Made by a program: the position numbers and the translations under genes. Shown here piece after piece: positions 26,565 through 27,290 of a stretch of DNA of 64,000 nt. The notes under the pieces are model-generated. The model saw only the letters and a program-made list of their open reading frames with translations. It ran no database searches and was not told the DNA's origin. Every line of letters starts with the position of its first letter. Position 1 is the first letter of the stretch. This DNA is from Octopus vulgaris (taxonomy: Eukaryota): positions 52,080,001 to 52,144,000 of the forward strand of contig OX597816.1 in assembly GCA_951406725.2 (NCBI GenBank), in the 5' to 3' direction.

Positions 26565-27290
26565 GTTTATTACATTATTTACATTATTTACATAAGACGA
26601 ATACTTGTCATTTTGTTTGTTGTTAAAACAACGTTTCGGCTGATATACTCTCCAGCCTTCATCAGGTGTCTTGGGGGAAATTTCGAACCTGAGTTCGCAT
26701 TCGTAAGGTATTTTTCGATATCATTATCATTATTATTATTATTATTATTATTATTATTATTATTATTATTATTATCATTATTATTATTATTATTATTATT
26801 ATTATTATTATTATTATTATTATTATTATTATTATTATTATTATCATTATTATTATGCCCGTAAGTATATGGCTAGTGGTTAAGAGTGCGGACTGCTAAC
26901 TCCAAGATTCCGAGTTCGATTCCAAGCAGTGACCTTAATAATAATAATAATAATAATAATAATAATAATAATAATAATAATAATAATAATAATGATAATA
27001 ATGATGATGATGATGATGATGATGATGATGATGATGATGATGATGATGATGATGATGATGATGATAATGATGATGATGATGATGATGATGATGATAATAA
27101 TAATAATAATAATAATAATATCGAAAAGTACCATACGAATGAGAACCCAGGTACAATATTTCCCCAAGACACCTGATGAACGCTGGTGGGTATATCAGCC
27201 GAAACGTTGTTTTAACAACAAACAAGATGAGGACAAATATCCGTCAAATATTAATAATGTACATAAATTCCTCATCTCATAAATATAGAA
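26565..27290 (+). mobile_element. tRNA-headed, hammerhead-bearing SINE-like element, locus 2: full copy (+, ~26864-27290) preceded by an inverted tail plus microsatellite (-)
   Basis: Head TGGCTAGTGGTTAAGAG...GAGTTCGATTCC (A/B boxes, B box 26914-26923). Then (AAT/GAT)n 26937-27119, and a tail with CTGATGA..GAAACGTT at 27168-27213. A reverse-complement tail lies at 26565-26721. Confidence 0.85.
26625..26670 (-). ncRNA. Minimal type I hammerhead motif (core intact, one stem I mismatch)
   Basis: GACAC-CUGAUGA-A-GGCUG..CAGCC-GAAACGUU-GUUUU on the minus strand. Confidence 0.7.

Follow-up and report, generated by a model that had tools for sequence, protein, structure and literature searches.

What is a repeat that begins like a tRNA gene and ends like a hammerhead ribozyme, and which machinery moves it? 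The question is raised by positions 26565-27290 of the 64,000-nt stretch of the Octopus vulgaris genome analyzed in this work (contig OX597816.1; hereafter, the window). An earlier note on this DNA had described at this place, and at three others in the window, one single design made of a tRNA-like head, an internal AAT/GAT tract and a hammerhead tail. It had seen no ORF in the design, and had proposed a non-autonomous element that uses the machinery of Penelope-like elements (PLEs) rather than that of LINEs, or that replicates like a retrozyme.

The four window loci (2205-2595, 26565-27290, 28213-28606, and 38725-40298; loci 1 to 4 in Table 1) do belong to one repeat family. None of them is a single unit, however: each consists of two truncated copies inverted head to head, with the tails facing outward. 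The AAT/GAT tract is present in the unit as described. The head was also said to be common to all four loci. Its A-box and B-box motifs exist, but locus 1 is headless, loci 2 and 3 have one head each (on the + and - arm, respectively), and those of locus 4, two in number, are partial. The tail core reads GACAC-CUGAUGA-A-GGCUG..CAGCC-GAAACGUU-GUGUU, in agreement with the earlier description; it is intact in three arms of the window (2265-2310 and 26625-26670 on the - strand, 27168-27213 on the + strand) and broken in three (at 2465, 38786, and 40180), and the hammerhead of locus 3 is split between its two truncated arms. The absence of an ORF does not hold, since the tail corresponds to the beginning of a Penelope-like ORF (with its ATG at 27139) and locus 4 also contains the 3' end of a LINE, which we take from its motifs to be of the R4/Dong clade. 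We found 6 loci of the family in forty evenly spread 10-kb stretches (400 kb), which extrapolates to approximately 42,000 loci in the 2.8-Gb genome (95% range 15,000-91,000). Hence, the family is not a chance pattern. The tail follows on the same strand in 21 of 29 loci selected by their head, and foreign DNA interrupts the tract or the start of the tail in the other 8.

Table 1. Features of the four repeat loci, in window coordinates.
Locus	Feature	Positions	Strand	Remarks
1	Target duplication	left copy 2205-2216; right copy 2595-2606	+	
1	Inverted arm, tail 32-147, without extension	2212-2326	-	hammerhead 2265-2310 intact
1	Tract and full tail with extension, without head	2325-2595	+	hammerhead core broken
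2	Inverted arm, tail (ORF start and hammerhead), without 3' extension	26567-26718	-	
2	Putative minimal type I hammerhead	26625-26670	-	intact core, cleavage triplet GUU
2	(AAT)n tract of inverted arm	26719-26854	-	
2	Junction remnant ATGCCCGT, short fold-back of head start	26855-26862		read from sequence; junction type recurs among other copies
2	tRNA-like head	26863-26936	+	A-box-like 26870-26879 (1-nt deletion), B box 26914-26923
2	(AAT/GAT)n tract	26937-27120	+	
2	Tail, first codons of Penelope-like ORF	27121-27290	+	ATG 27139, MRTQVQYFPKTPDE...PKRC; hammerhead 27168-27213, 3' extension 27263-27290
3	Arm with head, tract, tail 1-76	28212-28485	-	head 28408-28485
3	Arm with tail 65-181 and extension	28489-28605	+	
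4	Target duplication	left copy 38719-38729; right copy 40299-40309	+	
4	Inverted arm: partial head, tract, tail without extension	38731-38985	-	partial head 38945-38985
4	Arm: partial head, tract split by LINE fragment, tail with extension	38981-40297	+	partial head 38981-39040, tail 40132-40297
4	3' fragment of R4/Dong-like LINE in AAT tract	39121-40031	+	external to the unit; with a zinc knuckle, a restriction-like endonuclease motif and one stop in frame

The ORF start in the tail can be traced to an element of the same genome. A genome search with what we take to be the reverse transcriptase (RT) motif of the non-Neptune clade gave 201 matches, against 21 for the control. We fetched 30 of these loci, of which 26 are ORF copies, with the head downstream on the same strand in 17 and the tail in 5 more. 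The locus L182 has a 569-aa open frame in which the RT is followed by a GIY-YIG motif and whose stop lies 29 nt before the head. This frame shares 55% identity with P0003, which is full-length (847 aa), and matches RVT_1 with an E-value of 2.7e-6, just under the curated cut-off; its GIY-YIG was read from the sequence and missed by Pfam, and that of the relative P0069 has an E-value of 1.6e-5. The order of the autonomous element is thus ORF, stop, 29-nt spacer, head, (AAT)n, and the ORF's own first ~55 codons, with the hammerhead and the 3' extension. The tail continues into the ORF in L157 and L184, partial tandems in which pseudo-LTR and ORF start overlap, and BLASTP aligns the translated tail with the N-terminus of P0003 (E-value 3e-20). 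Therefore, the head, the (AAT)n tract and the hammerhead tail are the pseudo-LTR of an RT and GIY-YIG Penelope-like element of this genome, and not a free-standing SINE. The pseudo-LTR of Pen2a from Adineta likewise includes the first codons of the ORF (PMC3846280). No foreign tail is involved: the terminal repeat made of head, tract and tail belongs to the autonomous element itself. The tail stems from a PLE and not from the 3' UTR of a LINE, being Penelope-like ORF sequence.

The element is a member of the EN+ PLEs, with five features found: an ORF with RT and GIY-YIG, the overlap of pseudo-LTR and ORF, the inverted copy with its extension, the target duplication, and the hammerhead. We infer that it belongs to the Penelope/Poseidon clade from the presumed RT motif and from an identity of 27.5% with the other PLE of the genome, which is Neptune-like, these two being the points of reference used. 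The Neptune-like PLEs, the only ones found by a Pfam search for GIY-YIG, were rejected as partner, being without the shared tail. They form a young family (L061-L068, e.g., L063:3342-5684) with one intact 781-aa frame, a long additional open frame that precedes the RT ORF, direct pseudo-LTRs, and their own hammerhead of the U3-A8 variant (TTGATAA..GAAACATGT); a PDB search with the 781-aa protein gave no match. Among the 128 matches listed for the partner element there is no intact ORF copy, and sampled copies differ by 4-12% from the column majorities, so the family may be dead. In four places (L083:4537-4703, L157:1-40 as oriented, L184:437-596, and L067:8125-8154, the latter a lone 30-nt extension), pieces of the ORF start or of the extension lie directly before an AAT tract or a head, which suggests that insertion of the element into its own tract may be a route to tandems.

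The copies also record how they were integrated. We collected 47 two-tailed pairs, left out one at a locus edge, and scored the remaining 46. The 3' extension of approximately 30 nt is found on one arm in 43 pairs, on none in 3, and on both in 0. As 15 tail-selected pairs had been picked for having one extension, we also counted the other 31, which gave 28, 3, and 0, respectively (P = 0.0008 for the lack of doubles if the arms were independent). Direct repeats with a score of at least 10 lie on the two sides of 27 of the 46 pairs, compared with 1.5% of 271 swapped flanks. Each pair is therefore one insertion, since one target duplication surrounds both arms, and the arm that is longer at its 5' end can be either one of the two. 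Inverted pairs, one-sided extensions and target duplications are features of PLEs (PMC8557442, PMC3846280, PMC11167929). More precisely, both strands are nicked and extended by the PAc element, which has two internal start sites at the bounds of the extension (PMC11167929), and the pattern of our pairs, with one duplication, two arms and exactly one extension, fits this in vitro result. Together with the partner ORF, the inverted pairs, one-sided extensions and target duplications strongly support the earlier view that Penelope and not LINE machinery is at work. Whatever the role of Pol III, these insertions, which number tens of thousands, are short, easy to assemble and have ends that can be mapped, and constitute a large natural data set on Penelope integration.

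The predicted hammerhead is assigned from the core motif and from relatives. The tail has the extra base after position 9, the G10.1-C11.1 pair and the palindromic stem III, the three marks that define the minimal hammerhead of PLEs (PMC4209133). Among 105 full copies, the core is intact in 62 and the cleavage triplet is GUU in 81. We then scanned 47 of 80 related metagenome loci (50 were supplied, mostly with a match reaching the ORF end, and 3 of them had less than 300 nt downstream). The motif occurs in 20 of the 47 on the sense strand, in 0 on the antisense strand, and in 0-1 in shuffles, which is why we regard it as a real feature of the clade; 11 of these 20 hammerheads end in GAAACGUU, with differing stem II sequences. 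Rfam did not follow the earlier note in calling the tail a hammerhead, neither in the window nor in cleaner copies, and the best 150 of 285 matches of the whole-window scan included no tRNA or hammerhead. The matches to CRISPR-DR64 and to miRNA families were below the cut-off and were taken as chance. Unconstrained folding formed stems I and II, with weak z-scores from -1.6 to +0.2, and the fold of a dimer did not return the active form. The hammerhead does not set the ends of the copies: of the 31 arms whose truncation falls inside the tail, only 1 has its start 3 nt or less from the cut. Two tail pieces on the same strand were seen in only 6 sampled loci, and adjacent near-full tails in L134 only.

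The head is 76 nt long and has its A and B boxes in tRNA register, as well as T8, A14, C32-U33, A37-A38, and G53-T54-T55-C56-G57-A58-C61, on stems that have decayed (z about +0.6). Of 20 host tRNA genes, which cover six amino-acid types only, tRNA-Arg(TCG) fits it best (z of 8.8 relative to shuffled sequences), followed by tRNA-Arg(TCT) (7.3). The tRNA-like label given to the head earlier is not echoed by ARAGORN or Rfam, which made no tRNA call on it in the window or in cleaner copies. A scan for A and B boxes that detected 5 of 8 positive controls gave 1 weak match in the 47 relatives, so the tRNA-derived head looks specific to this octopus family of Penelope-like elements.

To locate the 5' ends, we took the first 60 of 1,149 exact matches to the head start, in genome order, two pairs of rows being duplicated. 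Most of these intact heads (48/60) end within ~7 nt upstream of the head. The other 12 continue into the ORF spacer (10 classified by script and 2 by eye), and only 1 of them stops in the next 33 nt, a step of about 75-fold in the per-base rate. In a second set, 67 of 68 arms stop at the head start, the exception (L021) extending 272 nt into the ORF. Overall, the 5' ends concentrate between about -7 and +1 relative to the head. Exact 26-mers were counted 661 times for the ORF end, 195 for the junction, and 1149 for the head, and about 20% of intact heads are still joined to the ORF end, a sizeable minority which implies that other products arise besides the short form. Many junctions have a short palindrome or fold-back at the head start (GCCC-AC-GGGC), whereas approximately 16 of the 48 stops, read by eye, join flanking or tail DNA without fold-back. 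Among the heads joined to an inverted tail (L224-L283 set), 10 of 12 start exactly at +1, the 5' position of a mature tRNA, and other heads of the set keep up to 6-7 upstream bases; the +1 starts could reflect RNase P-like processing, or microhomology. Finally, 9,106 reads (~6% of run X24, which is unstranded and whose organism may be another species) were placed on L021: the two strands are equal, starts and ends do not pile up, and the ORF end is covered.

The accumulation of 5' ends at the intact head makes it likely that the unit spreads as a short Pol III transcript, in the manner of a SINE. We consider it probable that most short copies of this pseudo-LTR derive from Pol III transcripts that start at its tRNA-derived head and are copied in trans by the RT of the element. 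The A and B boxes would drive Pol III from any copy that retains them, short copies included, which would result in SINE-like propagation. Transcription would start at about -6 or +1 and read on into the flanking DNA. The RT/GIY-YIG protein would then bind the ORF-start region and nick both target strands, and reverse transcription would have two internal starting points, one on each side of the extension. Because reverse transcription would start internally, neither a poly(A) nor a defined 3' end would be required. The inverted pair would result either from a head-to-head junction of the two cDNAs or from folding back of the first one at the GCCC-AC-GGGC palindrome, and short copies that keep the boxes would serve as templates again. 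The hammerhead would be inherited baggage of the clade, not needed to define the template. As for the origin of the unit, a tRNA-Arg-derived SINE with an (AAT)n tail was likely inserted into an ancestral pseudo-LTR. It is rather unlikely that the whole life cycle depends on Pol III, with tandem copies transcribing the 2.5-kb RT ORF from the head and every pseudo-LTR acting as a self-propagating SINE. Runs of four T number 0 in the column-majority letters over 2.7 kb (with low depth in the first 700), compared with 9, 9, and 8 in three Neptune-like ORFs, but this avoidance is only suggestive of an ORF transcribed by Pol III: its nulls are weak (P = 0.04, 0.098, and 0.031) and such runs are likewise missing over 710 nt of the LINE fragment of the window. 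A search for the head upstream of the ORF gave 0 matches, with an anchor specific to one copy (1 match alone).

Could the same 5' ends arise without a Pol III start? They could be those of ordinary 5'-truncated Penelope copies, in which the RT stalls or folds back at GCCC-AC-GGGC on a long RNA and the tRNA-like head is a passive relic. Because many junctions carry the palindrome, folding back at the head start could cause part of the pile-up even if no RNA truly began there. Short fold-backs are common (e.g., ATATGCCC-AC/GT/AT-GGGCATAT), copies attached to the ORF are numerous, and palindromes at the 5' end of pseudo-LTRs, with self-priming, have been described (PMC3846280). Yet, about a third of the 48 stops fall at the same place without fold-back, a 4-bp hairpin would be a weak barrier to an RT, and the promoter boxes are retained although the tRNA stems are lost. 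Hence, we regard this explanation as somewhat unlikely. Alternatively, a Pol II promoter within the pseudo-LTR, like that of the Penelope of Drosophila virilis, could produce templates that begin at the head. The pseudo-LTR is a known promoter region of Penelope elements, and the D. virilis internal promoter was likened to those of LINEs, which counts against Pol III (PMC2377424). Such a start would account for the pile-up equally well, but would leave to chance the coincidence with tRNA position +1 and the boxes in tRNA register, and we think it improbable.

The remaining two explanations replace the template or the machinery altogether. Retrozyme-like replication, the second proposal of the earlier note, would have tandem transcripts self-cleaved into monomers or circles that are then reinserted. 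The many intact hammerhead cores and the existence of type I hammerhead retrozymes in mussels (PMC7229834) are in its favor, but the internal 5' ends ignore the cut, tandem monomer arrays are nearly absent, head-to-head pairs place the two ribozymes on opposite strands, and insertion by PAc did not need cleavage (PMC11167929), all of which makes it very improbable. A conventional SINE moved by the R4/Dong-like LINE often seen in the AAT tract is scarcely credible. Fragments of this LINE do lie in or near several unit loci, but in locus 4 of the window the fragment interrupts the tract and lies within both the unit and its target duplication, the 3' end of the unit is Penelope ORF sequence and not a LINE tail, and one-sided extensions are not produced by LINEs (PMC8557442). 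We consider this explanation refuted by the partner ORF copies, the alignment of tail and ORF, and the pattern of pairs and duplications. We thus retain a short Pol III transcript copied by Penelope machinery as the probable source of most short copies.

Other repeats were observed along the way. Besides the one in the window, 3' fragments of R4/Dong-like LINEs occur in or beside the AAT tract in L003, L017, L019, L028, L029, L104, L119, L131, L141, L189, and L202, and this recurrence indicates that the tract is a landing site for another retroelement. In the window, positions 33881-34130 hold a near-perfect inverted repeat of ~120 bp, with CTGAAGA...GAAAGACCGGTT in its arms, that may be a MITE or the paired, inverted pseudo-LTRs of another PLE. 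Another inverted repeat (52883-53200) surrounds a (TA)n stretch; each of its arms contains CTGAAGA...GAAAC, and next to it lies a third arm in direct orientation. A long perfect hairpin at 31273-31392, which has an Rfam miRNA match below the cut-off, is probably a MITE-like repeat. Elsewhere in the genome, there are at least three further families with minimal hammerheads, one of them an inverted pair (L103:2599, L105:9826 and 9881, L064:358, L112:3798, L148:573).

The octopus OR1 and OR2 SINEs are related to tRNA-Arg. OR2 has been listed as a CORE SINE (PMC4758252). Automated and curated repeat families were reported for O. vulgaris, with most of the recently active SINE families left unclassified, and a term search of the supplement of that study retrieved neither "hammerhead" nor "ribozyme" (PMC13282606). 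Our literature search, mostly of listings and abstracts, found no PLE with a tRNA head, and the family may already have a name in Repbase, Dfam or SINEBase.

How does the unit compare with known systems? Like other EN+ PLEs (PAc of Anolis, Pen2a of Adineta, Penelope of D. virilis), the octopus element has an RT followed by GIY-YIG, the first ORF codons in the pseudo-LTR, a minimal hammerhead, an inverted 5' copy, an extension of ~30 nt at one end, and a short target duplication. Unlike them, its pseudo-LTR has a tRNA-derived head and an (AAT)n tract, its 5' ends cluster at the head, and its short copies outnumber the ORF copies; the head was not seen in 46 of the 47 relatives scanned, the other being the weak match. 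SINEs are defined as passengers of LINEs. The unit resembles the tRNA-derived ones (SINE2) in its tRNA-length head, A and B boxes, decayed stems, 5' ends at the head, short non-coding sequence, and tens of thousands of copies. It differs from them in lacking a LINE tail or poly(A), in its Penelope-type integration, and in having a partner that carries the head itself. It would thus act like a tRNA SINE but, with neither the tail nor the integration typical of LINEs, is not a classical member. Non-LTR retrozymes and the tRNA-related Sm-alpha of schistosomes are also short repeats with a type I hammerhead, but they form head-to-tail tandem arrays cut into monomers, whereas the octopus family is head to head and its ends ignore the cut.

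Two further groups come near in other respects. Some short derivatives without coding capacity are known to be moved in trans by a PLE, such as MRC1 of Chlamydomonas (PMC8557442) and the short Penelope elements of heliconiine butterflies (PMC6685494), and the descriptions drawn on here mention no tRNA head for either. The closest concept is that of TRIMp3 (Cassandra, Helenus, Ajax), where a Pol III promoter derived from a small RNA lies within the LTR, proposedly by insertion of a SINE (PMC10886601). TRIMp3 are non-autonomous LTR elements with a PBS and a PPT whose partners are expected to be headless (PMC10886601), whereas the octopus coding copies carry the head, its arms are inverted and unequal, and the junctions printed show no internal PBS/PPT segment. 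Pol III heads in terminal repeats have so far been described for LTR elements, namely TRIMp3, and annotations may wrongly class repeats of the octopus type as tRNA pseudogenes, SINEs or MITEs. If our reading is correct, they would add a third class of retroelements with a Pol III head, a SINE-like form of Penelope in which the autonomous and the short forms share one promoter.
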